From an uncultured candidatus Brocadiaceae bacterium (GTDB taxonomy: Bacteria > Planctomycetota > Brocadiia > SM23-32): a DNA stretch of 64,000 nt. A program made the position numbers and the translations under genes. Location of the stretch: NCBI GenBank assembly GCA_964572825.1, contig CAZNGS010000009.1, forward strand, positions 8,413 through 72,412, written 5' to 3'. Numbering within the stretch: the first letter of the stretch is position 1; every line of letters starts with the position of its first letter. This document shows positions 27,008 to 40,252 of the stretch, one piece after another. The notes beneath the pieces were generated by a model. It was not told the origin of the DNA. It made no database searches and saw nothing but the letters and a program-made list of their open reading frames with translations.

Positions 27008-30000
27008 TCAGCCCGCTTTCGGGCGGCGCTCCGGTTCCTCGGCCAGAGCCTCATCCACGTCCTCGAAGCGCACCGACATCTTCTGGGTCACTCCGTCGGC
27101 CATGGTCACCCCGTAGAGGACCTGCGCCACACCCATGGTCAGCTTGTTGTGGGTGACGATGATGAACTGCGTGTCCCGGCGGAACTCCTCCAGCAGCCTC
27201 AGGAAGCGCTCCACGTTGCTGTCGTCCAGAGGCGCGTCCACCTCGTCCAGCACGCAGAAGGGGCTGGGCTTGGTCTGGAAAATGGCGAACAGCAGGGCGA
27301 TGGTGGTGAGCGCCTTTTCGCCGCCGCTCAGCAGCGTGATGGAGTTCATCTCTTTGCCCGGGGGGCGCGCCACGATGTCGATGCCCGCCTCCAGGATGTC
27401 CTCCGCCTCCTCGTCCAGCCGCAGGTCGGCCGTGCCGCCGCCGAACAGCTTGCGGAACAGGGCCTGGAAGTTATCGCGAACCGCCTGGAACGTCTCCGCG
27501 AAACGCTCCCGGCTCTTCTTGTTCAATTCACGTATGATCTCTCGTTCGTGGCGGCGGGCCTTCTCCAGGTCTTCCTTCTGGTCAGTGAGGAACTGAAGAC
27601 GCACCTCCAGCTCCTCCTGCTGGCGGATGGCCGCCACGTTCACGTTGCCGATGCGGTCCACCTTGGCCTTCAGCGTGGCGATCCGCTTCTTGACTTCCTC
27701 CCAATCCGTGGACTCCTCGTCGGCCAGTTCCAGGACCGCGTTGCGCAGTTCGACCGCCTCATCGAGACCGATCAGCTCGACCTCGTCGTTTTGCCCGGGA
27801 CTCTCCTCGTCAGCCTCTCGGTACCAGTCGGCAACCTGTTCGGTCGGCGGCGGGTCGTCGGCCCACTCCCGGATCTGCCGGGTCAGGAACGGAGGGGATT
27901 CCCTCCACTGCTCCGGCTCCAGCGCCAGGCGCTGCAGGCGCACCCCGTAGTCCTCGGCGGCTCGTTCCAGCAGGTCTTCCATCTTGACCTTCAGCTCGTT
28001 CTGCTTCACGCGCAGCCGCTGGATGTTCTCCTCTGCCTCTTCGCGACGGGCCGCCAGGGACTCTGACCGGGCCGTCAGGTCGGATATCCGCTGCTGCAAT
28101 TCACGGATGGCACCGGCCATGTCCTCCAGGGCCTGGTTTAGCCGTGCCTTCTCCTCGCGGCGCTGTTCGATCTCCTGCCGGGCGGCGGCCTCGGCATCCT
28201 CAGCTTTGCTGCGGCGCCGGGCGACCACGGCGTCCTCCTCGTCCAGTCCCTCCAGGCGCCGGCGCGCGGCCCGAAGGTCCCTCTCCAGCCGGTCCAGCAG
28301 GTCCTTCAGGCCGTGGTGGTGCTCCCGGGTCCGGGCCACCTCGCTGTTGAGGGAGCTGACCTGCTGCCCGGTCTCCTGTTCGCGCTCCCTGAGGTCGGCC
28401 AGGGACTGCTGCTCCTCGCGGACGCTCTGTTCCGCGGCGGCGCGTTCGCGGCCGGCCGCCTCCGATTCCTTCTCCAGGACGGCCGTCTGCCGGTCCAGCT
28501 CTTCGATATCTTCCCGGCAGCCCGTCTCCTCGGCGTCGGCGATCTGAAGCTCTTCTTCAAGCTGTTCCACCCGGCGCTCGGCGACGGCCAGGTGGCTGCG
28601 GGCGTCGCCGGCGCTGTCGTGCACGACCTGGATGCGAGACGCCAGGTCCTCCTTCTGGCCGTTCAGCTCCCGTAATTGTCGCGCCTGCTCCTCCTTCTGG
28701 CGCCGCAGTTCGGCCAGGGACTGCTCCAGCTCCCGGATGGAGGATTCGAGCCGGGCCAGTTCGCTGCGCCGGCTCACCAGTCCGGTCTTTTCGGCGGCGC
28801 CGCCGGTCCAGAGGCCGTCGCCGCCGTAGCACTGGCCGCACTCTGTGACCAGGCGCACGCGGTCGGGCAGCCCCTCCCCCAGCATATCCCGGGCCGAGGC
28901 GGGCTCGTCCACCAGGAAGGTGTCACCCAGCAGCCGCTCCACGGCGGGGCGGGCGGCCGCGTCGCACTCGATCAGCTCGCTCAGTCTGCCAAGGCACGGC
29001 GCGGAGCGGGGAGGCTCGGACGGGGTTGCCGGGGGCAGGCAATCGAGAACGATCAGTTCGGCGCGGCCTTTCTGCTCCTCCCCCAGCCGTCGCAGCGCAG
29101 CGTGCGCGCTCTCGGAATCGCGGAACACCAGGGCCTGTGCGTGCTGGCCCAGCGCCGCCTCCACGGCCGGCGCCATCTCCAGGGGCACATCCACAAGGCG
29201 GGCCAGCAGTCCGACCAGGCCGGGCGGCCGGGCTTGCAGCAGGTACTTCACGCCGGATCGCAGCCCCTCGGCACGCTGCTCCAGGTCCAGCAGCACTTCT
29301 CGCCTGGCGTTCTTGCCGCTCAGTTCGCCGCGGACCTGGTTGACCTTATCGCACAGTTGCTCGTGCCGGTGCGCGGCGTCACTCACGCGCTGCCGGAGCT
29401 CGGACATCTGCCGCGCCAGTTCCTCCTGCTCCGACCGCAGGGCCTCCCGGCGGGCGGCGGCTTCCTCACGCTCCTCCCGGGCCGATTTCAGGCCCTTCCG
29501 GAGCTCGCCGCGGCGGTTCTCGATGCGTTCCAGCCGACTGAGCAGGGTCCTCTTCTCGGCGGCGGCGACTTCAAGCTGGTTGCCGAGCCGGGATTCGCGC
29601 TCGAACAGATCGAAGGTTTTGGCCTTCCGGGTTTCCACCTTCTCTTCCACGCGCCGGATTTCCTGCCGCGTGCTCTGCGCCTCGGCGCGTTTCGCCTCCA
29701 GGCGCTCGGAGATGTCGGCGAGCTCCGCCGCGCTCTGGTCCACCTGTCCGCGGACGTCCTCGATCTCCTGGTCCAGCCCTGCGGCGCGCTCCCGGAGCTG
29801 GCGCCGCCGCGCCTGCAGATCCTCGCTCTGCTCTTCCAGTTCGCGGTGTCTCTGCTGGCTGAGCTGTATCTCGCGTTCCAGGCTCTCCAGGCGGGCGTCA
29901 ACGCGGGTGAGGCGCTGTCGGCGCTCGCTCAGTTCGTCACGGGCCGTCTGCAGTTCGTCGCGGGCCGATTCCAGCGCCTCCGCGGCGCAGCGGGCCGCGT

Positions 30001-30778
30001 CGTCCCGACGGGATTTCTCCGCCAGCGCTCCTCGAAGGCTGTCGGCCACGTCCTCCTGCCGGGACAGCAGCTCCCGGTGAACGTGGAGGCTGAGGGCCAG
30101 GCGCAGTTTCTGGAGCTGCTCGGTCTGGCGCTTGAACGTGCGGGCGCGGCCGGCCTGGTACTTGACGCTGCGAAGCTGGCGTTCGACCTCCTCGATGATA
30201 TCGCTGACGCGGGCCAGGTTGTTGGTGACCCTCTCGAGCTTGCGCTCGGCCTCGCGTTTCTGGTCGAGGAAGCGGTTGATGCCGGCGGCCTCCTCGAAGA
30301 CGGCGCGCCGCTCGGCGGGGTTGGCGCGAAGGAGTTCGTCGATCTGGCCCTGCTCGATAAAGCTATAGGAGGATGTCCCGATCCCGGTGTCGAGCAGGAT
30401 GGTCCGGATGTCCTTGAGGCGGCATTGCTGGCCGTTCAGGTAATACGTGCTCTGGCCGGAGCGGTCCACCCGGCGGCGGATGGCGACCTCGTCGTAGTCC
30501 ACGTCCAGCCATCCGTCCGAGTTGTCGATGGTGAGCGTGACTTCGGCGTAGTTGAGAGGTTTGCGCGACTCGCTGCCCCCGAAGATGATGTTGGCCATCT
30601 CGGAGCCGCGCAGCTTGCGGGCGCTGCGCTCACCCAGCACCCACTTGAGGGCATCGGCCACGTTGCTCTTGCCGGAACCGTTGGGGCCGACCAGTGCGGA
30701 AAGGCTGTCCTCGAACTCGAAGACCGTACGCTCGGCGAAAGACTTGAAACCGTACAGTTCGAGTTTCTTCAGGTTCAA
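27008..30778 (-). CDS. smc: chromosome segregation protein SMC
   Basis: MNLKKLELYGFKSFAERTVFEF...GPNGSGKSN is a Walker A. Long coiled coils, a hinge and a C-terminal LSGGEKALT...DEVDAPLD signature are present. The product is 1256 aa. Confidence 0.9.
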   Translation of the reverse strand: MNLKKLELYGFKSFAERTVFEFEDSLSALVGPNGSGKSNVADALKWVLGERSARKLRGSEMANIIFGGSESRKPLNYAEVTLTIDNSDGWLDVDYDEVAIRRRVDRSGQSTYYLNGQQCRLKDIRTILLDTGIGTSSYSFIEQGQIDELLRANPAERRAVFEEAAGINRFLDQKREAERKLERVTNNLARVSDIIEEVERQLRSVKYQAGRARTFKRQTEQLQKLRLALSLHVHRELLSRQEDVADSLRGALAEKSRRDDAARCAAEALESARDELQTARDELSERRQRLTRVDARLESLEREIQLSQQRHRELEEQSEDLQARRRQLRERAAGLDQEIEDVRGQVDQSAAELADISERLEAKRAEAQSTRQEIRRVEEKVETRKAKTFDLFERESRLGNQLEVAAAEKRTLLSRLERIENRRGELRKGLKSAREEREEAAARREALRSEQEELARQMSELRQRVSDAAHRHEQLCDKVNQVRGELSGKNARREVLLDLEQRAEGLRSGVKYLLQARPPGLVGLLARLVDVPLEMAPAVEAALGQHAQALVFRDSESAHAALRRLGEEQKGRAELIVLDCLPPATPSEPPRSAPCLGRLSELIECDAAARPAVERLLGDTFLVDEPASARDMLGEGLPDRVRLVTECGQCYGGDGLWTGGAAEKTGLVSRRSELARLESSIRELEQSLAELRRQKEEQARQLRELNGQKEDLASRIQVVHDSAGDARSHLAVAERRVEQLEEELQIADAEETGCREDIEELDRQTAVLEKESEAAGRERAAAEQSVREEQQSLADLREREQETGQQVSSLNSEVARTREHHHGLKDLLDRLERDLRAARRRLEGLDEEDAVVARRRSKAEDAEAAARQEIEQRREEKARLNQALEDMAGAIRELQQRISDLTARSESLAARREEAEENIQRLRVKQNELKVKMEDLLERAAEDYGVRLQRLALEPEQWRESPPFLTRQIREWADDPPPTEQVADWYREADEESPGQNDEVELIGLDEAVELRNAVLELADEESTDWEEVKKRIATLKAKVDRIGNVNVAAIRQQEELEVRLQFLTDQKEDLEKARRHEREIIRELNKKSRERFAETFQAVRDNFQALFRKLFGGGTADLRLDEEAEDILEAGIDIVARPPGKEMNSITLLSGGEKALTTIALLFAIFQTKPSPFCVLDEVDAPLDDSNVERFLRLLEEFRRDTQFIIVTHNKLTMGVAQVLYGVTMADGVTQKMSVRFEDVDEALAEEPERRPKAG

Positions 30779-31184
30779 TGCGTCCCTCTCCGGCGTCCGG
30801 GGCGATGATCGGGAGCGCTCTGCGACCGGCGGGGGGCGCGCCGTTCCGCGGGCGCCCCCCGCTGGCCTCCGAGATTCCCCTTTTGGGGAAGCATGAGAAC
30901 AGAGATTCTAAGCAATGCGAGCAGGGAAAATCACGCCGGGCGCCCCATCCGGGCAGCCGTCGGACGGCAGCGACGTGCAGCGGGACAGGCGGCGGCGGAC
31001 CGCCTGGCCGTAGGGCACGTTCTGACAAAGACTTACGCCCAGGAATGCAGCGCTACAGGAGGATGGATGAATCGGCCGCGCCGCGATAAAGGGCCCCGGG
31101 ATGCGCCAGAAAAGCGCGGCAAAATGCCCCCGACGGCCCCCCGAATCGGCCGCAGGATGGGGGGGCGTGCGCGCGCGGCGGGGC

Positions 31185-31943
31185 TCAGGTGGTGAGAGCG
31201 TGCTCCCTGCCGCGCACGATGCAGCGCTCGCCCGTCCCCCGCGCCATCTGCCCGAAGGCATCCATTTGTTCCGGCCGGAACGGCATCACTTCGTGAAGCT
31301 CCGGGCTCAGGCAATCGTCGGGACGAAAGTTCTGCAACGCCACGGCCCGGGCCCCCTCCAGCTCCGGCAGGATGCCGCGCAGTTCGTCCTCCCCCACCAG
31401 GCCGGGGACGAGGGTGATGCGGAACTCGTGGGGCAGTCCGCTGTCGCGGATGAGGTTGATGGACCGCCGCACCGCGCCGATGTCCACTTCCGCGTCCGTC
31501 ACCCGCCGGTAGTCCGTCGGGTTCAGCGGCGCTTTGACGTCCATGGACATGACGTCCACGCAGTTTTCTTCGATCAGCTCTTCCACCACGTCCGGGCGGG
31601 TGCCGTTGGTTTCCACCATCACGTCCACGGAGAACTCGTGGAGCCTCTCCGTCAGGTCCACCAGTTCCCGGCCGTGCAGGGCCGGCTCGCCGCCCGTGAC
31701 GGCCACGGCGTCCACCCAGCCCCGCTGAGCGCGCAGATAGGCGGCGACCCGCTCGAACGGGACCGTCTCCATCTGCTCCGGGGCCAGCACCAGGTCCCCG
31801 GCGTGGCAGTAACGACAGCGCAGGTTGCAGTGCGGCAGGAAAAGGACCGAAGAGACCTTACCCTCCCATTCCAGCAGGCTGCTCTCGATGAATCCTTTGA
31901 TTTGCATTTTTCGTGCGCAGACCTGGCAGGCTCCCTCTTTCAT
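31185..31943 (-). CDS. nrdG: anaerobic ribonucleoside-triphosphate reductase activating protein (radical SAM); an alternative start is the ATG at 31907
   Basis: MQIKGFIESSLLEWEGKVSSVLFLPHCNLRCRYCH carries a CxxxCxxC radical-SAM motif. The ATG at 31943 overlaps the upstream stop as ATGA. The ATG at 31907 fits NrdG N-terminal alignments better. Confidence 0.7.
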   Translation of the reverse strand: MKEGACQVCARKMQIKGFIESSLLEWEGKVSSVLFLPHCNLRCRYCHAGDLVLAPEQMETVPFERVAAYLRAQRGWVDAVAVTGGEPALHGRELVDLTERLHEFSVDVMVETNGTRPDVVEELIEENCVDVMSMDVKAPLNPTDYRRVTDAEVDIGAVRRSINLIRDSGLPHEFRITLVPGLVGEDELRGILPELEGARAVALQNFRPDDCLSPELHEVMPFRPEQMDAFGQMARGTGERCIVRGREHALTT

Positions 31944-34900
31944 TCGACGCGGCCGGCAGGCGGGCCGTCACCGGCGGGACACAGCACGATGCTGGTCTGC
32001 ATCGGATAGCCGCAGATGCACCCTACGCTGCCCTCCGGCATCATCAGCAGGCCCCCGGCCGGCAGCATGGTGATCCAGCAGCCGGGCCGCGAGACCATGG
32101 TCAGGGCCACCTTGCGGTCGGCCACCGTATCGTATCCCTTGCAGACTTCTTCGCGGAAGAACAGGCAGCGCTCCGAGGCGCTGAAGGGCATGCAGCGCCG
32201 ACTGCCGCCGAAGTTGCGGTCGCTGACGTCCCTGCCGGTGGCGATCTCGCAAATGGGCACGTTCTCCGTGATCCAGGGGTTGTAATACAGCTTGCCGCCG
32301 ACGACCGCGGGATGCTGGATGCTGCCGTTGTGGTCCGTGGTGTTGGGGAGCACCTTCGCCTGGCTGTTCATGACCGTGTGCCACTTTTGCTGCCCGTTGG
32401 CCGGGTCCCAGGCGGATACGTCGTAAATGGCGATGTAGGGCTTCTCCGATTCATCCTCCAGGTACGTCGTGGTGCACAGGAGCGTCTCGTCGGCGTAGGT
32501 CAGGTAGAGGATGAACCGGGCCTTCTGCTCCAGCGGTTTCCGCCATTCCTCGCGGCCGCTCTCCAGAGCCACGGCCACCAGGTAGGCCTCCTTCTCGATA
32601 AAGTCCACCATGTCCACCCGGCCGTTTTCGGCATTCATGGCGGCGTCGCTGCGGCTCTCGACGAAGAAGACCTGCCGCCGGCCGACCGTGATGGATGGGT
32701 TCAGGATGGCGCCGCCCTCATATTCCCACAGACGCCGGAAGTCGGACTTGTCGATCGCGAAGAGGTTGTCACTGACGATGGGGCGGCTGCGCCCGCAGCG
32801 GGGTCCGTAGAGAAGGGGCTTTTTATTGGGAGCGTCGACGGTGTTGAAGGAGGCGCGGGGGTGCTGGTTGGTGCCGATCAGGTAGTCCCCCTGGGTGGCA
32901 ACGAGCCCCCAGTCGCGGTCAGAGCGCGGTCCCTTCAGCTTCCGTACGGTCCGTCCGTCGGCCAAGTCGAGAACCCGGCACTGGCTGCCCGAGGCCACAT
33001 AGAGGTGCCGGTCATCGACGCACATGGGGTTCGCATCGTGGCTGGCGATCAGCCGGGAGGAATCCGGCACTTCCTTCGTCCACAGGTAGGTGCCGTTGTA
33101 GGCATCCACGACGGTCAGGTAGTTCCGGCCCAGCACGAACAGCCGGCCGTCCCTGTAGAGGGGGGCGGCCGGGATGTGGTGGCGGTCCTGGTAGCGCTCC
33201 GGTCCCGGCGGGCCGAACCACTGGGTCATGAACTGGGTGCCGACCCGCGTGTCGCGGCTGTTGGATGTCTGCTGGGCGTCCGCGTACATGTGGGTCCACG
33301 ACCCCGCCCCGTCCAGCGGGCCGCGCGTCAGCGTGCCCCGGGCGCCGTCCCCCTCGGTGACGATCCGGAGCCCGGGCAGCCTCTCTCCCGCCCACTGCCG
33401 CAGGCGTCGCCCTCCGGACTCATCCGCCAGCACCAGCATGCCCCCGCAGGGCCTCAGCACCCGGAAAACCTGATGGGCCTCGTATGCATCCCAGCCTCCG
33501 GCGGACACGATCAGGTTCGCGGAGTAGCTGGGATACGGCAGCGGCCGGGATATCCGATGCACCACGACTCGTTTTCCGTAGAGTCCGGCGGCGTGGAGTC
33601 GCTCCCGGGCCCGCCGCGCCTCCGCGTCGTCCGGGACGGGGATAACCACCCGGAACTCCGAGTTCGCCGCCACCTCTGCCGCCAGTGAGGGGGCGTCCTG
33701 CCCCAGCACCATGCAGAATCCCTTGCGCATTCGGGTCTCCGCCAGGGCCCGGGCGGCCACCGAGTGCACGGGCGAGCGGAGCCGAACCGTTGCGGACCTC
33801 GAGGAGCCGGCCGACGGCGGCCCGTGGCCGAAGCAGTAGATCAGCCCCTTCGTGGTGCTCACGTAAAGCGAGCCCTCGGCGAAAGCCAGTTCGTGGGCCT
33901 CCCCCTCCACCTGCGTGCGCCACGTCTCCCGCCCCGTGTCGGCGTTGTATGCGGCCACGCAACCCTCCCCACCGGCGAAGAGGGTGGCGCCCGCGAGCAA
34001 AAGCGCCGAGGCGGGGGCCTTATCCACGCGCCACTTCTCGCCGTCCGCCAGGGCCCTGCCCACCGCCGGATGCTCCCGGATGCGGAGGCCGTCGGCCGTC
34101 TTTCCCAGGTAGTATTTCCGTTTGCTCTGGAGGGTCCTTTCCACGCGGGCAGACATGGTTTTTTCGAAGACCTGCCGCGGTACCGCGCAGAGATGGTATT
34201 GGAACCTTTCCCGCATGTATCGACCCCGCCCGTCCGTGATGCGCACCAGGTAGTAAGCATCCTTATCGGCCACCAGATGGCGACATGCTATCCCCACGGC
34301 GTCCGGCGCCGGCTCTCTGGTGAATCTGGGCTGTTTCTCGGGCTTCTCAACTTCGAGCCCGCGCACGCGCACGGTGGAGATTCCGTATTCACTGGGCCCG
34401 TAGACGACCATGTCGTGCATCGCTCTGGGATAGCCGCCGCCACCGGCGCGCTTGTAGGCCACATTCTTGCGCTCCAGGGCCTCTCCATCCGACCGGCGAA
34501 AGACCGCCGGAGCCGTGCGGCCGGTGGGCACCCAGAGGCATCTCTCGGTGGCCAGCACGTAGGATTCGGCCGGATAGGGGCTCTCCCTCTTCCAGTGGAG
34601 CCGACCCGTAGCGGCGTCAACGGCGAACAGATACACGCCCTGCACGGGGAACAGACCGGCGGCGAAATACACGGTGCCGTCATAGACGGTCACGCCGGTC
34701 CGCACGGGCCATTGCGACATCAGGCGCCCGTGGCCGATCACCAGTCGTCGGTCGGGAGCCGCGCTGAATTGCCAGAGCAGTTCACCGTCGCCGGCGTCCA
34801 GGCAATAGACCATGCCGTCGTCGGCACCGAAGTACACGTGCCCATCACCGACCGTGGGCGCCAGCCGGACCGCTCCATTGGCGTAGAAACGCCACCGCTC

Positions 34901-35248
34901 CGCTCCGGAGGCCGCGTCCAGGCAGATCAGGGCTTCCTCCGTGGAGGAGGCGTAATACAGGCGCCCGTCCGCCACGACGCAGGCATAGGCGAAGTCGTAG
35001 CTGACCGGCGGGAGGTAGCCCGGTCGCACGTGGGTGCCGTACCGGGCGGGTCGGGGTGCATGCGGCGCCCGATGCACCCAGAGCTGCCGCAGGGGGGGTT
35101 CCGGGCTTTCAGCGGTAGTGTGGTTCCGCGTCGGGCCGCCCCCGAAAGCGGGCCAGTCGCCAGCATCCGCAACGGAAGCAAGACACAACACTCCAGCGAA
35201 GAGAACTGTGATCGACAGTCTGGACGCTGAGTTTGCGCACTGCATCAT
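31940..35248 (-). CDS. large secreted PQQ-like beta-propeller repeat protein
   Basis: A signal peptide (MMQCANSASRLSITVLFAGVLCLASVADA) is followed by many G.VY.G..DG.LY.LD..TG...W repeats. GGAGAG sits 5 nt before the ATG at 35248. The product is about 1100 aa. Confidence 0.7.
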   Translation of the reverse strand: MMQCANSASRLSITVLFAGVLCLASVADAGDWPAFGGGPTRNHTTAESPEPPLRQLWVHRAPHAPRPARYGTHVRPGYLPPVSYDFAYACVVADGRLYYASSTEEALICLDAASGAERWRFYANGAVRLAPTVGDGHVYFGADDGMVYCLDAGDGELLWQFSAAPDRRLVIGHGRLMSQWPVRTGVTVYDGTVYFAAGLFPVQGVYLFAVDAATGRLHWKRESPYPAESYVLATERCLWVPTGRTAPAVFRRSDGEALERKNVAYKRAGGGGYPRAMHDMVVYGPSEYGISTVRVRGLEVEKPEKQPRFTREPAPDAVGIACRHLVADKDAYYLVRITDGRGRYMRERFQYHLCAVPRQVFEKTMSARVERTLQSKRKYYLGKTADGLRIREHPAVGRALADGEKWRVDKAPASALLLAGATLFAGGEGCVAAYNADTGRETWRTQVEGEAHELAFAEGSLYVSTTKGLIYCFGHGPPSAGSSRSATVRLRSPVHSVAARALAETRMRKGFCMVLGQDAPSLAAEVAANSEFRVVIPVPDDAEARRARERLHAAGLYGKRVVVHRISRPLPYPSYSANLIVSAGGWDAYEAHQVFRVLRPCGGMLVLADESGGRRLRQWAGERLPGLRIVTEGDGARGTLTRGPLDGAGSWTHMYADAQQTSNSRDTRVGTQFMTQWFGPPGPERYQDRHHIPAAPLYRDGRLFVLGRNYLTVVDAYNGTYLWTKEVPDSSRLIASHDANPMCVDDRHLYVASGSQCRVLDLADGRTVRKLKGPRSDRDWGLVATQGDYLIGTNQHPRASFNTVDAPNKKPLLYGPRCGRSRPIVSDNLFAIDKSDFRRLWEYEGGAILNPSITVGRRQVFFVESRSDAAMNAENGRVDMVDFIEKEAYLVAVALESGREEWRKPLEQKARFILYLTYADETLLCTTTYLEDESEKPYIAIYDVSAWDPANGQQKWHTVMNSQAKVLPNTTDHNGSIQHPAVVGGKLYYNPWITENVPICEIATGRDVSDRNFGGSRRCMPFSASERCLFFREEVCKGYDTVADRKVALTMVSRPGCWITMLPAGGLLMMPEGSVGCICGYPMQTSIVLCPAGDGPPAGRVE

Positions 35249-35465
35249 GCACTCTCCAATTCCTTTCAGGCACCCGCGCCGGCCGGACATTCAACTTCGA
35301 TCCGTCCAGTGTACCCGTTGCTGCGCGGCGGGCAACTGCCGGCCGCGGCGGCCCGAACGCGTCCCGAACACGCTGGCCGGCCAGTTCCTTGAGATTACTG
35401 CGTCGTCGACCCACGAGTCCGTCGCCGGCCACCAGAACATTACGTTCCGCAATTGTCCGTCCCTG

Positions 35466-35500
35466 TACTGTTTTGGGGACACTCAAAAAGGGCACCGGGA
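35466..35500 (-). terminator. candidate intrinsic terminator (hairpin plus T5) downstream of the nrdH-like gene
   Basis: The minus strand reads CCGGG-tcaccgt-CCCGG-tgccc-TTTTT, about 60 nt after the nrdH-like stop. Confidence 0.3.
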
Positions 35501-35562
35501 CGGTGACCCGGCAGATCACCGCCCCGGTTGACACGGTGGGGTTGATACCTGCCAACCCCGGC

Positions 35563-35835
35563 CTACGCCGTCAATCTCTGGCGAAGTTCGCTGCTGGGGG
35601 GGGCGTGGCCGTCCCAGCGGGCGACCACATGGTCGGTGTCCTTTTTGAGAAGAACGGAGGGGATATCGAACACGTCGAAGAAGTCCCCCTCGGCGGCCCC
35701 GTGCTCGGTCTCCATGTCCTGGAAGACCACGTCCACCCGGTCCTCCACCTCCCACTTGCTGAGGAAGTGGGAGAGCTTTCGCTTGGCGCTCTGGCAGAGT
35801 TTGCACTCCTGCTTGCCGTAGACTTCGATGATCAT
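35563..35835 (-). CDS. glutaredoxin-like / NrdH-like redoxin
   Basis: The 90 aa product has MIIEVYGKQECKLCQSAK, a CxxC redox motif. It lies immediately downstream of nrdD. Confidence 0.6.
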   Translation of the reverse strand: MIIEVYGKQECKLCQSAKRKLSHFLSKWEVEDRVDVVFQDMETEHGAAEGDFFDVFDIPSVLLKKDTDHVVARWDGHAPPSSELRQRLTA

Positions 35836-35872
35836 TTCTGCTACCTCGCGCTGACTGTGTTCCGTGTGTCGC

Positions 35873-38323
35873 TCACACCAGTGCGACGCTGTAGTTGCCC
35901 CGGTGGCGATCCTTCAGCTCGCCTATCTTGGACTTGTTCCAGTTGGGGATGCGGCTGAAGTAGCCCACCACGCGCGTCATGCCGTAGACGTCCGGGCTGT
36001 GGCAGTGCCCGCAGGCCGGCTTGAGTCCGGGCGTGGAGCGATGGCATTGCCGGCAGATGGTGAACTCGGGGCTGATGGTGAGTTGGGCCGCCTGGGTGTT
36101 GCGATAGGTCTTCTCCACCAGGTTGTGGATGCTGGCGGCGGGCGGCCTTTCCTCGCCCACGAAGGCGTGAATGATGGCGCCGCTCTCGATGGCCCTGTGG
36201 AATTTGCTCTGCAGGCGGATTCGGGTCAGCAGGTCCACCGGCGCATCGGCGCGCAGGTGGATGCTGTTGGTGTAGTAGGCGTCGTCGTCGTCGGTGTCGC
36301 CGCAGACCACCTTCTCCGCCTCGGGGAAACGCTGCAGGTCCACCTTGGCCAGGCGGCGCGCGGCGCTCTCTGCCGGGGATTCCTCCAGCGCCACCCGCAT
36401 TCCCTGCTCTTCCCCCAGGGCTTTTGCCCGGAACTGCATGTGCCGCACCAGGTGGAGCCCTTCGCGCACGAGCTGCTCGTCCTCGTGCAGCTCCCGGCCG
36501 GTCAGGTAGAGCAGGGCCTCGTTCAGACCGATCAGCCCCACGATGTAGGTGGCCTTGTCCAGGTCCACGTAGGGCCGCCCGTCCGCCCCATCTTTGCCGA
36601 TCTCCCACAGGGGTTGGCTGGGGCCGGTCATCAGGGAGCCGATGAACCGGCGCTTCTGCCGATGGGCCCGGATGACCAGGTCGATCATCCGGTCCACCTC
36701 CCGGCGAAATGCCTCCATGTTGCCGGGCCCGGCCCGGTAGGCGGCCTGGGGCAGGTTGATGGTGACGTTCTGGAACCCGCAGAACCGCATGCTCTCCGGG
36801 TGCTGGATCATGTAGTCGTCGCGGATGGTGGTGCGCAGCCGGCAGCAGGCGCTCAGGGTCACCTCATCGCGGTCGAAGATGAAGTAGGGCACGCCGTTCT
36901 CGCTGGCTATCTGGCAGGCGTATTCGAGTATCTCCCGCTGGGCGGGGTCGCTCAGGGTAGCATCGCTGATGTGCAGGTCGCACTTGGGGAACGCGAACAC
37001 GTTGCCGTACTGGTCGCCGGCCCTCCAGACATCCAGCATGGCCTTGCAGAAGCGCTGGGCGGTCTTCTCGTAGTCACCGTAGGTGCGCCCGTCGTACTCG
37101 CCGCCCGGCCCGATGGCGGGAACGTCCTTGAGGTACTCGGGCACGCCGGTGTGGACGTTGAAGTCCAGGAACAGGGTCTGCCCGCCGCGGCTGAAGGCGT
37201 TCTGGGAGGAGCTGAATATCAGGTGCTGCGCCTCCTGCTCCATCTCCCCGTAGGACATACCCTCCACGTAGGGGGCGTAGAAGATGTTGATGTAGCCCAC
37301 GCCCAGGGCTCCGGCGTAGTATGCCTGCATGGAGGCCAGAAAGGTGTTCAGGTGCCCCGTCAGCGTGCGCGCGTGGCGGGCCGGCGCGCTGGAGGTGTCC
37401 AGGTTCTGCAGGTTCAGGCCGTATTTCTTCAGGTATTCCAGGCTATGGCTGGAGCAGTAAACCCGCGTGGGATAGCCCAGGTCGTGCAGATGTATCTCGC
37501 CCAGCATGTGGGCCTCGGCCACCTCGTCGGAGAAGACCTCCTGCAGGGCGTACTGCTTGAGCGTGTGCTCGGCCACCGACAGGTTGATGGCCTCCGGGTT
37601 GTTCTGGGCGATGTTGGCGTTTTCCTTGCTCTTGCTGCGCAGGAGCTGGTCCAGGTCGAACTTGGGCATTCCGACGACGGCCTGCTTTTTCAGCCGGGCG
37701 GTCAGGCCGCGTTCGAACAGCTCGTTGTCCACCAGTTCCCGGATCAGGCCGGTGGAGATGCGGGTGAGGCCGCTTTTCATCACGCGGCGCTCAACGGCGG
37801 AGGCGATCTCGCGGGCCACCCGCGGGGCCAGGTCGGCCTCGGTCTCCAGGGCCTGCGCGATCTTCCCCTTGTCCCACTCGGTCAGCCTGTCCTGGGTCTC
37901 GGTGTTGACCAGCAGCGCTATGTCGGTCGAGTTGCCGTTGCTGCGCACCGGCTTGCGCACCTGCAGGGACTGGCGGACGCGTGCCCGGCGGTCTCGATAC
38001 AGAATATACGCCTTGGCCGTCCTGGCGTGGCCGGTCTCGATCAGCACTTTTTCCACGACGTCCTGGATCTCCTCGATGGTCGGCGGGACGCCGTCGTAGT
38101 CCTTTTCCAGCAGGACGGTTACCATCGAGGCCAGCTCCTCGGCCAGGGCCCGGTCCTTCCCGCCGACGGCCTGCGCGGCCTTGAAGATGGCGTTGGCTAT
38201 CTTGGATTCATCGAAGGGCACGAGTCGGCCGTCCCGCTTTCTCACCTCTTTAATCCCGCGGGACGCGTCCCCCGTGTTTGCCAGATGTCCTTCCTCCTGT
38301 GCGGCGTCCGTCTCAACGGCCAT
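35873..38323 (-). CDS. nrdD: anaerobic ribonucleoside-triphosphate reductase (class III) with an N-terminal ATP-cone
   Basis: The ATP-cone reads VRKRDGRLVPFDESKIANAI. The C-terminus has a four-Cys zinc site (CRQCH...CGHCH) and a glycyl-radical motif (TRVVGYFSR). The ATG at 38323 has a GGGAGGG RBS. Confidence 0.9.
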   Translation of the reverse strand: MAVETDAAQEEGHLANTGDASRGIKEVRKRDGRLVPFDESKIANAIFKAAQAVGGKDRALAEELASMVTVLLEKDYDGVPPTIEEIQDVVEKVLIETGHARTAKAYILYRDRRARVRQSLQVRKPVRSNGNSTDIALLVNTETQDRLTEWDKGKIAQALETEADLAPRVAREIASAVERRVMKSGLTRISTGLIRELVDNELFERGLTARLKKQAVVGMPKFDLDQLLRSKSKENANIAQNNPEAINLSVAEHTLKQYALQEVFSDEVAEAHMLGEIHLHDLGYPTRVYCSSHSLEYLKKYGLNLQNLDTSSAPARHARTLTGHLNTFLASMQAYYAGALGVGYINIFYAPYVEGMSYGEMEQEAQHLIFSSSQNAFSRGGQTLFLDFNVHTGVPEYLKDVPAIGPGGEYDGRTYGDYEKTAQRFCKAMLDVWRAGDQYGNVFAFPKCDLHISDATLSDPAQREILEYACQIASENGVPYFIFDRDEVTLSACCRLRTTIRDDYMIQHPESMRFCGFQNVTINLPQAAYRAGPGNMEAFRREVDRMIDLVIRAHRQKRRFIGSLMTGPSQPLWEIGKDGADGRPYVDLDKATYIVGLIGLNEALLYLTGRELHEDEQLVREGLHLVRHMQFRAKALGEEQGMRVALEESPAESAARRLAKVDLQRFPEAEKVVCGDTDDDDAYYTNSIHLRADAPVDLLTRIRLQSKFHRAIESGAIIHAFVGEERPPAASIHNLVEKTYRNTQAAQLTISPEFTICRQCHRSTPGLKPACGHCHSPDVYGMTRVVGYFSRIPNWNKSKIGELKDRHRGNYSVALV

Positions 38324-38351
38324 TTTGGCCCTCCCGGTGGTCTCAGACGCG

Positions 38352-38855
38352 TCAATCCCTGTGGCGTGAACTGGTTTCTTCCGGCGCGGTCCCGTCATCG
38401 GCGGCGTCCCGCAACACCGTGCCCGCCTCTTCCACGAAGTCGCTGACGTCCTTGAATTCCTGATAGACGGAGGCGAAGCGGATGTACGCCACCTGGTCGA
38501 GCTCGCGCAGCCTGGTCATCACGAGCTGCCCGATCTTCCGGCTTGGCACTTCGCCCTCGTAGTGGCGGTGCAACTCCCGCTCGACGTCCTCGGCCAGCGC
38601 CCTGATGCGCTCGGCGGGGATGGGACGCTTGTAACATGCCTTGTTCAGGCCGGAGATGATTTTCTTCAGGCTGAAGTCCTCGCGGCCCCCGTCTTTCTTG
38701 ATCACCCGCAGGACGCTCTCTTCGATGCGCTCGTAAGTGGTGTAGCGGCGGCCGCAGGCGTTGCATTCCCGGCGGCGCTTCACGTAGGTCCCGTCGGCAC
38801 TGGGGCGGGAGTTGACGACCCGATCATCGTCCTTCTTGCAGTACGGGCACTGCAC
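38352..38855 (-). CDS. nrdR: transcriptional repressor NrdR
   Basis: MQCPYCKKDDDRVVNSRPS...CNACGRRYTTYERIEES is the NrdR zinc ribbon. An ATP-cone follows. The start is GTG with a GAGG RBS. Confidence 0.85.
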   Translation of the reverse strand: MQCPYCKKDDDRVVNSRPSADGTYVKRRRECNACGRRYTTYERIEESVLRVIKKDGGREDFSLKKIISGLNKACYKRPIPAERIRALAEDVERELHRHYEGEVPSRKIGQLVMTRLRELDQVAYIRFASVYQEFKDVSDFVEEAGTVLRDAADDGTAPEETSSRHRD

Positions 38856-38953
38856 CTGTCAAACCCCTCTCAACGGCCCGAAATGCGGCCCTCAGGCCGC
38901 ACGGAGAGTATCGAGCGAAAGAACCAGGCATGCCATATCTTGAACACCGGGAT

Positions 38954-38982
38954 ATCTTACACTCCAAGATGTGGTAAGTCAA
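38954..38982 (-). promoter_or_regulatory. sigma-70-like promoter for nrdR (TTGACT-N17-TAAGAT) with overlapping direct repeats
   Basis: The minus strand reads TTGACT (38982-38977), a 17 nt spacer and TAAGAT (38959-38954). An AT-rich upstream tract is present. Two GTGTnAAGATAT direct repeats overlap and follow the -10. Confidence 0.4.
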
Positions 38983-39280
38983 GCCCTATTTTTGCTTTTC
39001 CGAAGATTTTTGTTTGGACGGCGTTAGAGCGGCTTCCCGTGCGGCCAACGGGCCTGGCCTAAACGGTTGCGAAGGACTCCGTTATGCCCCGGCCCGGGGG
39101 GCGCCGATCGTCCGGGCGCGCGAACGATTTTCAGTCCGCCCGGGGCCGGTTCTCGACCGAGAAAAAGGAATCAGCCCCCCGCCGAACGCACCGACGACGG
39201 TTGCAGCCGGGGCTCGCCCCGGCGACAATAGTGGCAGAGGCGCCCCCGGGGCGGTCAGGCACGGGAAAGGAGACCGATTC

Positions 39281-40252
39281 ATGGAACAGCATGGCAGCCG
39301 GGGCCCGAGGACCGGGCCGGGGGGAGACTTCGACCCGTTCTTCCCCTGCAAGGACAACCTGCCCGGCGTGGTGGACCGGTTGCTTCAGCAGCTCGACGAA
39401 CGGGAGACCGTGCAGCACGTCTGCCGCTATCCCCTGCCGAGTGAGAAGACCGTCATCCGCATCCTCAATCTTCTGGCCGAGGCGCTGTTCCCGGGCTACT
39501 TCAGCCAGAAGGGGCTGAGCCGGGCGAACCTCGCCTTCCACATCGGGGAGACCATCGGCAACGCTTACGACCTGCTGGCCAACGAGATCACCCGCTGCAC
39601 CCTGCACGCCCGGCACGACTCGGCTCGGTCCGAGCATGTCGAGTGCCAGCGGGAGGGGGAACGGCAGGCCTTCGCGCTCCTTGAGAAACTCCCCGACCTG
39701 CTCGACATCCTGGACGACGACGTGCGTGCCGCCTACGAGGGCGACCCCGCCGCCACGGGCTACGACGAGGCCATCTTCTGCTACCCTGGTTTCCGCGCGG
39801 TCATGATCTACCGCATCGCGCACGAGCTGCACGCACGGGGCGTGCAGTGGCTCCCCCGCATCATGACCGAATACGCCCACCGCCTCACGGGCATCGACAT
39901 CCATCCCGGCGCGGCGATCGGCCGCCGCTTCTTCATCGACCACGGCACCGGGGTGGTCATCGGGGAGACCAGCGAGATCGGCGACAACGTGCGCATGTAC
40001 CAGGGCGTGACGCTTGGGGGTTACCGCTTCAAGACCGACGAGGAGGGCAACCTGCTGCGCGGCTACAAGCGGCATCCCACCATCGAGGACGACGTGATCA
40101 TCTACGCCAACGCCAGCATCCTGGGCCCCATCACGGTGGGCGCCGGCTCGGTCATCGGGGCCAATGTCTTCCTCACGCACTCGGTGGACGCGGGCACCCG
40201 GGTGAGCATCGAGAAGCCCGCGCACCGCATCCGCCGGCGCGAGAGCGAGTAA
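39281..40252 (+). CDS. cysE: serine O-acetyltransferase
   Basis: An N-terminal SATase helical domain and a hexapeptide-repeat C-terminus (GIDIHPGAAIGRRFFIDHGTGVVIGETSEIGDNV) are present. AAAGGAG precedes the ATG at 39281. Confidence 0.85.
   Translation: MEQHGSRGPRTGPGGDFDPFFPCKDNLPGVVDRLLQQLDERETVQHVCRYPLPSEKTVIRILNLLAEALFPGYFSQKGLSRANLAFHIGETIGNAYDLLANEITRCTLHARHDSARSEHVECQREGERQAFALLEKLPDLLDILDDDVRAAYEGDPAATGYDEAIFCYPGFRAVMIYRIAHELHARGVQWLPRIMTEYAHRLTGIDIHPGAAIGRRFFIDHGTGVVIGETSEIGDNVRMYQGVTLGGYRFKTDEEGNLLRGYKRHPTIEDDVIIYANASILGPITVGAGSVIGANVFLTHSVDAGTRVSIEKPAHRIRRRESE

Follow-up and report, generated by a model that had tools for sequence, protein, structure and literature searches.

A propeller gene inserted into the anaerobic ribonucleotide reductase operon of a Brocadiaceae bacterium

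Genes of a class III (anaerobic) ribonucleotide reductase (RNR) lie together on the minus strand of a 64,000-nucleotide (nt) stretch of DNA from an uncultured candidatus Brocadiaceae bacterium (GenBank assembly GCA_964572825.1, contig CAZNGS010000009.1, positions 8,413 to 72,412; the whole stretch is called the window here). Here we show that the cluster is interrupted, in the window and in a narrow set of relatives, by a gene for a large beta-propeller protein inserted directly upstream of the activase gene nrdG. Very probably, an operon for an NrdD2-type enzyme has been split by an unrelated passenger, which became the neighbour of the activase gene by accident. The ancestral and widespread order would have been nrdR–nrdD–redoxin–nrdG, here then followed by smc, and an insert of ~3.7 kb would have brought in a hairpin/T-run terminator, a promoter-like motif and a gene of a very large planctomycete double-propeller family. 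The redoxin would re-reduce the active-site disulfide of NrdD in place of formate, and the NrdG2-type activase would install the glycyl radical in NrdD. Since the insertion, expression of nrdG would come from the propeller transcript, of which it would be the distal cistron, and from any read-through of the terminator from an NrdR-controlled promoter, with translation by re-initiation after the propeller stop codon. The propeller gene itself would be a functional passenger with no mechanistic tie to ribonucleotide reduction. The genes concerned are as follows.

nrdR, 38352..38855, minus strand: 167 amino acids (aa), GTG start; repressor of RNR genes with a zinc ribbon and an ATP-cone
nrdD, 35873..38323, minus strand: 816 aa; catalytic subunit of class III RNR
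redoxin gene, 35563..35835, minus strand: 90 aa; small thioredoxin-fold protein with the motif C11-K-L-C14
propeller gene, 31940..35248, minus strand: 1102 aa, predicted to be secreted; longest open reading frame (ORF) 31940-35290, up to 1116 aa
nrdG, 31185..31907, minus strand: 240 aa from ATG 31907; NrdG2-type radical-SAM activase with the motif CNLRCRYC

According to the ORF list, all five are co-directional in the order nrdR, nrdD, 90-aa CxxC redoxin, a hairpin with a T5 run, propeller gene and nrdG. A first-pass annotation, made from the sequence alone, had placed nrdR (with its GTG start), nrdD, a CKLC redoxin, a propeller gene and nrdG here on the minus strand; ORFs and family models find each of them at the coordinates it gave, and family models and synteny bear out its view that the propeller gene interrupts a class III RNR cluster. 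NrdR scores 183 bits against TIGR00244 (cut-off 125), with model positions 1-143 aligned to residues 1-143, and has domain matches to PF22811 and PF03477 (zinc ribbon and ATP-cone); its GTG start corresponds to an ATG in the related locus L001. The finding matters little beyond annotation, for which it supplies corrections: a start of nrdG at 31907 and of nrdD at 38323, an NrdD2-like label for NrdD, and recognition of the 90-aa ORF as a dedicated redoxin. It also illustrates, on a small scale, how a passenger gene can split an operon whose distal gene would still be expressed.

Synteny and distribution of the insertion

We fetched 80 genome loci around NrdG homologues, searched 82 loci by tblastn with six window proteins and took the genomic context of the propeller gene from its homologues. 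Across the 82 loci, the propeller gene lies between the redoxin gene and nrdG only in the window, L001 and L002, and tblastn found no propeller homologue in the 80 genome loci around NrdG homologues. L001 and L002 also hold the only two close homologues of the propeller protein (L001, from ENA, 76% identity; L002, from GCA_964448935.1, 82% over a partial match), the next best reaching 40%. Both have the order of the window, nrdR–nrdD (816 aa)–redoxin (90 aa)–propeller–nrdG (called at 241 aa)–smc, and the propeller gene occupies this place in further assemblies of the L001 population too. The closest non-syntenic homologue (40% identity), the only one whose context was checked, adjoins ABC-transporter genes away from any nrd gene.

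The nearest relatives that lack the propeller gene keep the operon uninterrupted. In the nine closest of these loci (L003-L011), all from metagenome-assembled genomes (MAGs) labelled Brocadiaceae, Brocadiia or SM23_32, the order is nrdR–nrdD–redoxin–nrdG, NrdD is 72-84% identical to that of the window, and 6 of the 9 run on into smc. Three further metagenomic or MAG relatives, L085 (NrdG 67% identical) and L087/L088 (64%), read nrdR–nrdD–redoxin–nrdG–smc without a propeller gene, and their outer neighbours match those of the window: a Hexapep gene upstream, and smc and a GAF-SpoIIE gene downstream. The spacer between the redoxin gene and nrdG is 37-40 nt in L085 and L087. More widely, nrdG starts less than 600 nt after nrdD in 52 of the 63 loci that hold both genes. 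The parsimonious reading is a single insertion of ~3.7 kb into the redoxin–nrdG spacer, in a common ancestor of the window organism and the L001/L002 lineage.

Downstream of nrdG on the same strand lies smc (window 27008-30778, minus strand, 1256 aa, TTG start), as it does in most close relatives whose contigs reach that far. Judged by gene order, the nrd–smc neighbourhood is a stable synteny block in the clade of the window.

Other changes were observed at or near the insertion site. The propeller gene of L002 (L002:9971-11881) has an in-frame internal deletion of ~470 residues that joins the signal peptide and first 175 residues to the C-terminal propeller, removing most of the first propeller and a Rossmann-like domain and keeping the native stop next to nrdG. 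Between its redoxin gene and the terminator hairpin, L002 also carries an extra segment of ~870 nt (L002:9130-9840; 53-56% GC against ~65% in the flanks) that is absent from L001. The protein encoded there is dCTP-deaminase-like (236 aa; PF22769, 76 bits), has a coiled-coil-like region and ends in a hydrophobic tail at its C-terminus; its gene may be mobile or defence-type cargo. In L007, an SM23_32 MAG, a different ORF of 114 aa without a Pfam match (L007:9540-9890) occupies the redoxin–nrdG spacer, the insertion site of the window. By these comparisons the site is unstable, because L002 has acquired both the deletion and the extra gene despite being ~95% identical to L001 at silent sites elsewhere, and because L007 carries a different ORF.

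More distant loci have interruptions of other kinds. In three Chloroflexi loci (L023, L029 and L030, from Anaerolineales/Thermoflexia MAGs), nrdD and nrdG are separated by 2.5-5.9 kb of other genes, among them ORFs of ~520-540 aa with hydrophobic, signal-peptide-like N-termini; one intervening ORF has a P-loop NTP-binding N-terminus (MAKYFVLVAGNIGVGKTSL) and resembles a deoxynucleoside kinase by eye only. These genes look like independent interruptions of the nrdD–nrdG pair.

Around the insertion in the window we found no conserved target-site duplications or terminal inverted repeats. A GC-rich inverted pair of 15 nt (31945-31959 and 35336-35350) brackets the propeller gene and was set aside as a chance occurrence, being one of 57 such pairs in 3.7 kb; L001 and L002 lack the segment that holds one of its arms.

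Subtype of NrdD and its presumed reductant

NrdD matches PF13597 (408 bits, cut-off 26) and TIGR02487 (380 bits, cut-off 326). The longest nrdD ORF (841 aa, from 38398) begins inside nrdR; the start common to relatives is ATG 38323, which agrees with the 816-aa calls in L001 and L002 and is preceded by GGGAGG, 7 nt upstream, in both the window and L001. The protein has two ATP-cone stretches at its N-terminus and, at its C-terminus, the glycyl-radical motif TRVVGYFSR (G787 in RVVGYF), with a four-cysteine ribbon (CRQC...CGHC) just before it; RV/I-x-GY is kept across the aligned NrdDs.

Three sets of residues, in 816-aa numbering, bear on the subtype: Y289-C290, C493-C494 (in SACCRL) and E647 (in LEESPAE). 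In HMMER alignments to the T. maritima NrdD (4COI), the window Y-C pairs with Y124-C125, SACCRL pairs with the SCCR motif, and the first Glu of LEESPAE pairs with the Glu of I-E-Q-V-P-A-E (residue 495 by alignment offset). We take E495 of T. maritima to be equivalent to E438 of N. bacilliformis. The same pattern extends across the NrdDs found next to NrdG2-type activases, where the Glu of LE-x-x-P is present in 63 of 63 and an intact CCRL in 62 of 63; the one exception is L082. In this Dojkabacteria MAG an intein-like insert of ~300 residues (ending ...THN before C) splits the CC of the finger-loop motif SMCCRL. HMMER alignments to the formate-type structures 8P23 and 9D3X show a mismatch at the position of the window's Glu, and 9D3X has a single Cys (GCR) opposite the window's CC.

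In the scheme of Wei et al., as given in PMC4493059, NrdD2 has a third Cys and an active-site Glu, NrdD3 has the Cys without the Glu, and NrdD1 has neither; the reductants listed in PMC9176816 are formate for NrdD1, thioredoxin for NrdD2 and the glutaredoxin-like NrdH for NrdD3, and PMC4390871 cites Glu438 of N. bacilliformis as the proposed base. By its residue pattern the window NrdD is NrdD2-like (thioredoxin-type), because a third Cys adjoins the finger-loop Cys and the active-site Glu is present. The NrdD3 subtype, which is NrdH-dependent and found in methanogens, is ruled out by the same Glu. The first-pass annotation had proposed that the cysteine pair be looked for in an NrdD alignment, where it is found as CCRL opposite the T. 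maritima SCCR motif, and its suggestion that the adjacent redoxin marks a thioredoxin-type NrdD subclass gains support from the third Cys and the Glu.

The likeness to the NrdD2 enzymes of N. bacilliformis and T. maritima (Wei et al. 2014; PDB 4COI/4U3E) comprises the glycyl-radical domain, the bottom-face Y-C, the adjacent Cys pair of S-x-CCR-L, the Glu of L-E-x-x-P-A-E and the NrdG2 type of the activase. Identity to these enzymes is only ~20-30% (PDB E 2e-15) and, unlike them, the window system combines two N-terminal ATP-cones with a dedicated redoxin encoded in the operon, whereas the N. bacilliformis NrdD was assayed with a general thioredoxin (PMC4493059). The nrdDG systems of E. coli and phage T4 (NrdD1) belong to the same enzyme class and have the NrdD-then-NrdG order and NrdR control, but they use formate and have neither the third Cys nor the Glu, and the match between the T4 enzyme and the window NrdD reaches only E 5e-6.

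The 90-aa redoxin belongs to a recurrent set. An iterated search found the same small protein between nrdD and nrdG in 21 other loci, so that 22 loci, the window among them, carry it out of 63 (window included) with a full-length nrdD. These loci span Planctomycetota, delta-proteobacterial (Desulfobacterota-like) and Syntrophorhabdales MAGs, Bathyarchaeia, an actinomycete and an Eisenbacteria MAG. C11, C14 and the cis-proline P59 are invariant in 19 homologues situated between nrdD and nrdG. A profile of the redoxin matches glutaredoxin-like/PDO proteins of P. horikoshii and P. furiosus at E 1e-14 and the M. jannaschii thioredoxin 1FO5 at E 1e-9, but E. coli NrdH (1H75) only at E 0.02 (0.019), and the protein reaches no Pfam or NCBIfam cut-off for glutaredoxin or NrdH (Pfam Glrx-like, 21 bits, cut-off 26). 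Members of the NrdH family carry the motifs C-V/M-Q-C and WSGFRP. We rejected an assignment to NrdH proper, since the active motif is CKLC, WSGFRP does not occur in the sequence and no NCBIfam model matches. Of the earlier label, a glutaredoxin/NrdH-like redoxin, the thioredoxin fold with its CxxC and cis-Pro stands and membership of the NrdH family proper does not.

The redoxin is presumed, from residue patterns and gene order, to be the electron donor to NrdD. Wei et al. reportedly described in 2015 a comparable arrangement in Methanosarcina barkeri, whose NrdD3 is said to work with an operon-encoded NrdH-like redoxin and a ferredoxin:disulfide reductase. In both systems a small thioredoxin-like CxxC protein, the presumed reductant, is encoded inside the nrdD–nrdG operon, but no ferredoxin:disulfide reductase gene was seen in the window cluster and the window redoxin is nearer to small archaeal thioredoxin/PDO-type proteins than to NrdH. 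The NrdD3 enzymes also differ in being without the active-site Glu, according to PMC4493059, whereas the window NrdD has it; the pairing of NrdD3 with NrdH is given in Table 1 of PMC9176816. The first-pass annotation had considered a thioredoxin-like gene beside nrdD unusual. It is instead a recurrent and already described theme, given its presence in 22 of 63 nrdD loci and the accounts of NrdD2 and NrdD3 in PMC9176816. The occurrence of such a gene between nrdD and nrdG in several phyla offers biochemistry a pointer to class III RNR–reductant pairs.

Transcription and translation of nrdG

The features that bear on how nrdG is expressed are listed below, from the upstream end of the operon to the junction of the propeller gene with nrdG.

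promoter-like site of the nrd operon, 38982-38954, within 38933..38982, minus strand: TTGACT-17-TAAGAT, upstream of nrdR
inverted 12-mers CCAYATCTTGRA, 38963-38974 (minus strand) and 38933-38944 (plus strand): flank the -10 element; candidate NrdR boxes
two hairpins after the redoxin stop, 35485..35559, minus strand: 35559-35538, and 35528-35494 followed by T5 at 35489-35485
motif GGCAGTTGCC-N-TACACTGGAC, 35304..35340, minus strand: upstream of the propeller gene, read by eye
stretch of high conservation, 31944..32400, minus strand: 3' end of the propeller gene; possible embedded nrdG leader or promoter
ATGA, 31940..31943, minus strand: propeller stop TGA 31942-31940 overlapping the in-frame ATG 31943-31941

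TTGACT-17-TAAGAT is the only sigma-70-like site in 30700-39200. The flanking 12-mer CCAYATCTTGRA occurs in the window at these two sites and, with one mismatch, at 2631-2642, against 0.45 occurrences expected by chance, and the TTGAC -35 element recurs with both boxes upstream of nrdR in L001-L004, L007, L009 and L010. The textbook NrdR-box consensus acaCwAtATaTwGtgt has no match here at up to 3 mismatches; the inverted 12-mers are plausibly divergent NrdR operator boxes that this consensus misses. A search with the 12-mer found no candidate NrdR box near the propeller gene or nrdG.

Among terminator-like sites in 8.5 kb, the strongest is the second hairpin after the redoxin gene (35528-35494), which has 16 pairs and precedes GCCCTTTTTG; the 96 nt around it fold at -46.3 kcal/mol (z = -2.8). 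It had already been picked out as a hairpin-T5 terminator candidate in the first-pass annotation, and such a candidate it remains: it is found only in the window, L001 and L002, where it is kept with one compensatory pair. It came with the insertion or evolved afterwards, because the closest propeller-less relatives, with the short spacers of L085 and L087, have no room for it. Downstream of the hairpin, GGCAGTTGCC-N-TACACTGGAC is kept in the window and L001 within an otherwise unalignable spacer, and in L002 its halves are 9 nt closer together. In the window it contains TTGCCC (35335-35330), 16 nt and TACACT (35313-35308), which falls below the threshold of the consensus scan; it may be a promoter or operator of a propeller–nrdG unit. 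An Rfam scan of 30500-39500 at E <= 0.1 gave no match. The likeliest arrangement, as far as sites in the DNA can indicate it, is two transcription units, nrdR–nrdD–redoxin and propeller–nrdG, with some read-through between them.

The ATGA overlap at 31940-31943 is present as the first-pass annotation had reported, and it had taken the ATG 31943 within it as the nrdG start, with ATG 31907 as its alternative. We take the alternative, ATG 31907, as the start because 24 of 26 NrdG homologues (49-78% identity) and the NrdG2 model begin there. The homologues begin M-x-I-[KR]-[GE] at the residue that corresponds to M13 of the window ORF, and the NrdG2 model TIGR02495 (148.7 bits, cut-off 131.15) aligns its position 2 with ORF residue 15; of the two exceptions, P0130 is called six residues short and P0157 has one extra residue. 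The radical-SAM motif, C39-N-L-R-C43-R-Y-C46, is invariant in 27 sequences. ATG 31943 lies 12 codons upstream of ATG 31907 and does not mark a conserved N-terminus, the 12-codon extension being without a conserved counterpart. Most probably, nrdG starts at ATG 31907 and the ATGA overlap is incidental.

A competing account, which we consider unlikely, is that overlapping codons couple the two genes, so that NrdG would be a 252-aa protein from ATG 31943 made in fixed proportion to the propeller protein. Besides the ATGA in the window, it can draw on the propeller stops of L001 (ATGA) and L002 (GTGA), each in frame with nrdG and 8 codons upstream, on the 252-aa call of the source annotation, on the lack of a Shine-Dalgarno sequence at ATG 31907, and on the large deletion in the L002 propeller gene, which is in frame and keeps the native stop. 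The extension peptides are nevertheless unrelated (MKEGACQVCARK in the window, MTSTRHRT in L001, VTSIRDRT in L002). They measure 12 against 8 codons and have no common sequence although the adjacent coding sequence is 77% identical, and the propeller–nrdG spacer (20-32 nt) is unalignable between the window and L001, where the flanking coding DNA is ~80-90% identical. Any ORF whose last codon specifies Glu or Lys has a purine in front of TGA, and the chance that a spacer of 8-12 codons at 67% GC is open and in frame is, by a rough estimate, ~1 in 4 per lineage. ATG 31943 is itself without a Shine-Dalgarno sequence, and the conserved N-terminus of the 24 homologues and the NrdG2 model falls at 31907.

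With nrdG starting at ATG 31907, the question becomes how ribosomes reach it. The nrdD, redoxin and propeller genes have GGAG-type Shine-Dalgarno sequences 3-8 nt upstream of their starts, and in most propeller-less relatives such a sequence precedes nrdG by 5-9 nt. The window has none within 12 nt of ATG 31907; a GAGGGAG directly after the propeller stop is 23 nt away. The gap from the propeller stop to ATG 31907 is 32 nt. Translation of nrdG by re-initiation of ribosomes that terminate at the propeller stop is plausible, and appears the simplest route because of this 32-nt gap and the lack of a Shine-Dalgarno sequence at ATG 31907.

The 3' end of the propeller gene is unusually conserved. 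Between the window and L001, third-position identity is 0.80 in the last ~150 propeller codons (91/113) and 0.57 elsewhere (391/681; Fisher p = 2e-6). In the DNA alignment the last ~450 nt of the gene have 91% mean column identity and a perfect block of ~80 nt, and the first 80 nrdG codons are also elevated (third-position identity ~0.76, against 0.48-0.67 in later bins). This conservation could reflect selection on the junction, through an embedded nrdG promoter or leader or through coupling; other possible causes are a recombination tract and codon bias in the best-conserved blade. That the propeller 3' end contains a separate promoter for nrdG and that nrdG is translated independently, leaving the propeller gene a mere upstream neighbour, is a possibility we regard as real, though we doubt it. 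It would account for the silent-site signal on both sides of the junction and the ~80-nt block, and would fit an activase needed regardless of propeller expression. A consensus scan, however, found no sigma-70-like site in the propeller 3' end, and the spacer beside nrdG is not conserved. The signal comes from a single lineage pair, L001 and L002 being ~95% identical at silent sites and too close for an independent test, and it could just as well be a product of recombination or of codon bias in the blade that is best conserved (amino-acid identity 0.88-0.93).

A stronger form of dependence, which we think very unlikely, would make propeller–nrdG an obligate bicistron: nrdG would have lost its own ribosome-binding site after the insertion, the activase would depend on the finishing of a 1102-codon ORF, and the conserved last 450 nt would be a selected element setting the activase level. 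If this were true, anaerobic deoxynucleoside triphosphate supply would be tied to the expression of an envelope protein.

Several observations weigh against the account of an accidentally inserted passenger with nrdG starting at ATG 31907. An in-frame NTGA stands at the propeller stop in both propeller lineages, with a difference in spacer length of 12 nt, which is divisible by three, and this recurrence hints weakly that the extension might be translated; the NCBI annotation of the source record likewise uses a 252-aa NrdG (P0121). Silent-site conservation at the propeller 3' end is not predicted by a pure passenger model. The propeller-carrying clade comprises only two independent lineages, which makes statements about conservation thin, and the sigma-70 consensus used for the promoter scan may not suit this phylum.

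The inserted propeller gene and its protein

The start of the propeller gene in the database is 35248 (1102 aa, MMQCANS...), with GGAGAG upstream. The first-pass annotation had described a PQQ-repeat propeller protein with a signal peptide. Both parts are upheld by a hydrophobic N-terminal helix (residues 7-29) of the kind typical for signal peptides in an AlphaFold2 (AF2) model (pLDDT 86.9, pTM 0.90) and by four stretches matching PQQ_2 (PF13360, 131 bits). Models of quinoproteins, in contrast, fall far below their cut-offs. A PQQ-dependent dehydrogenase was rejected on this ground (TIGR03075, 56.8 bits against a cut-off of 480; TIGR03074, 17 against 833), PF01011 matching only at profile positions 49-136 of 595, and so was a BamB equivalog (TIGR03300, 75 bits against 285). 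For this protein, 'PQQ' is the name of a repeat type only.

In the AF2 model, a first eight-bladed PQQ-type propeller (residues ~54-475) is followed by a Rossmann-like alpha/beta domain (~495-640) and a second propeller (~673-1091). Foldseek returned only generic eight-bladed PQQ-type propellers (tetrathionate hydrolase, BamB and quinoprotein alcohol dehydrogenase) at 12-16% identity, the BamB and tetrathionate hydrolase matches at E 1e-17. Both halves have the blade repeat and fold of BamB and other PQQ-type eight-bladed propellers (PF13360; PDB 3Q7M, 6L8A, 1KV9); the window protein differs in setting two propellers around a Rossmann-like domain in 1102 aa.

The inserted gene appears to be functional and under purifying selection, because its ratio of non-synonymous to synonymous substitution rates (dN/dS) between the window and L001 is 0.20, comparable to nrdG (0.22) and smc (0.26). 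With this ratio, pseudogene status in the window and L001 was rejected.

The first-pass annotation had treated the propeller protein as a meaningful partner of NrdG. In a fuller version of this idea, selection would maintain the linkage and the protein would truly serve the anaerobic RNR, for instance as a periplasmic component that responds to redox state or oxygen and shares its regulation with the activase. In its favour, the arrangement has been kept in two lineages with a propeller dN/dS of 0.20, and the junction region is strongly conserved. A check of synteny in relatives had been named beforehand as the test that could refute the pairing, and its outcome goes against it: L003-L011, L085 and L087/L088 have nrdD–redoxin–nrdG without a propeller gene, and the linkage is absent from all other NrdG loci examined (80 genome loci and L085-L088). 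The propeller family is numerous, and the one homologue with a checked context lies elsewhere. The propeller protein carries a signal peptide, in contrast to the cytoplasmic NrdG and NrdD; ~470 of its residues have been lost in L002; different unrelated genes, including ones for secreted proteins, stand between nrdD and nrdG in the Chloroflexi loci; and the propeller gene has no candidate NrdR box upstream. On this evidence we consider a partnership extremely improbable, and nothing links the propeller protein to ribonucleotide reduction. The passenger reading stays the preferred one.

A literature search on this propeller family returned nothing relevant, and the PADLOC defence models matched neither the propeller protein nor the dCTP-deaminase-like protein of L002. 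Among 8000 candidates scored there are 765 propeller homologues, mostly of ~1080 aa and from Planctomycetota and Verrucomicrobia MAGs. Many members have central matches to Methyltransf_11/25, and the family consensus keeps GAGxG; in the window protein, methyltransferase motif I is degenerate, with LGQDAPS in place of GAGxG, and a Pfam scan of its central domain alone gave no methyltransferase match. In one further propeller sequence, L091, a nonsense codon, perhaps erroneous, sits in a cluster of four G/C-to-T differences where coverage is 4.8x.

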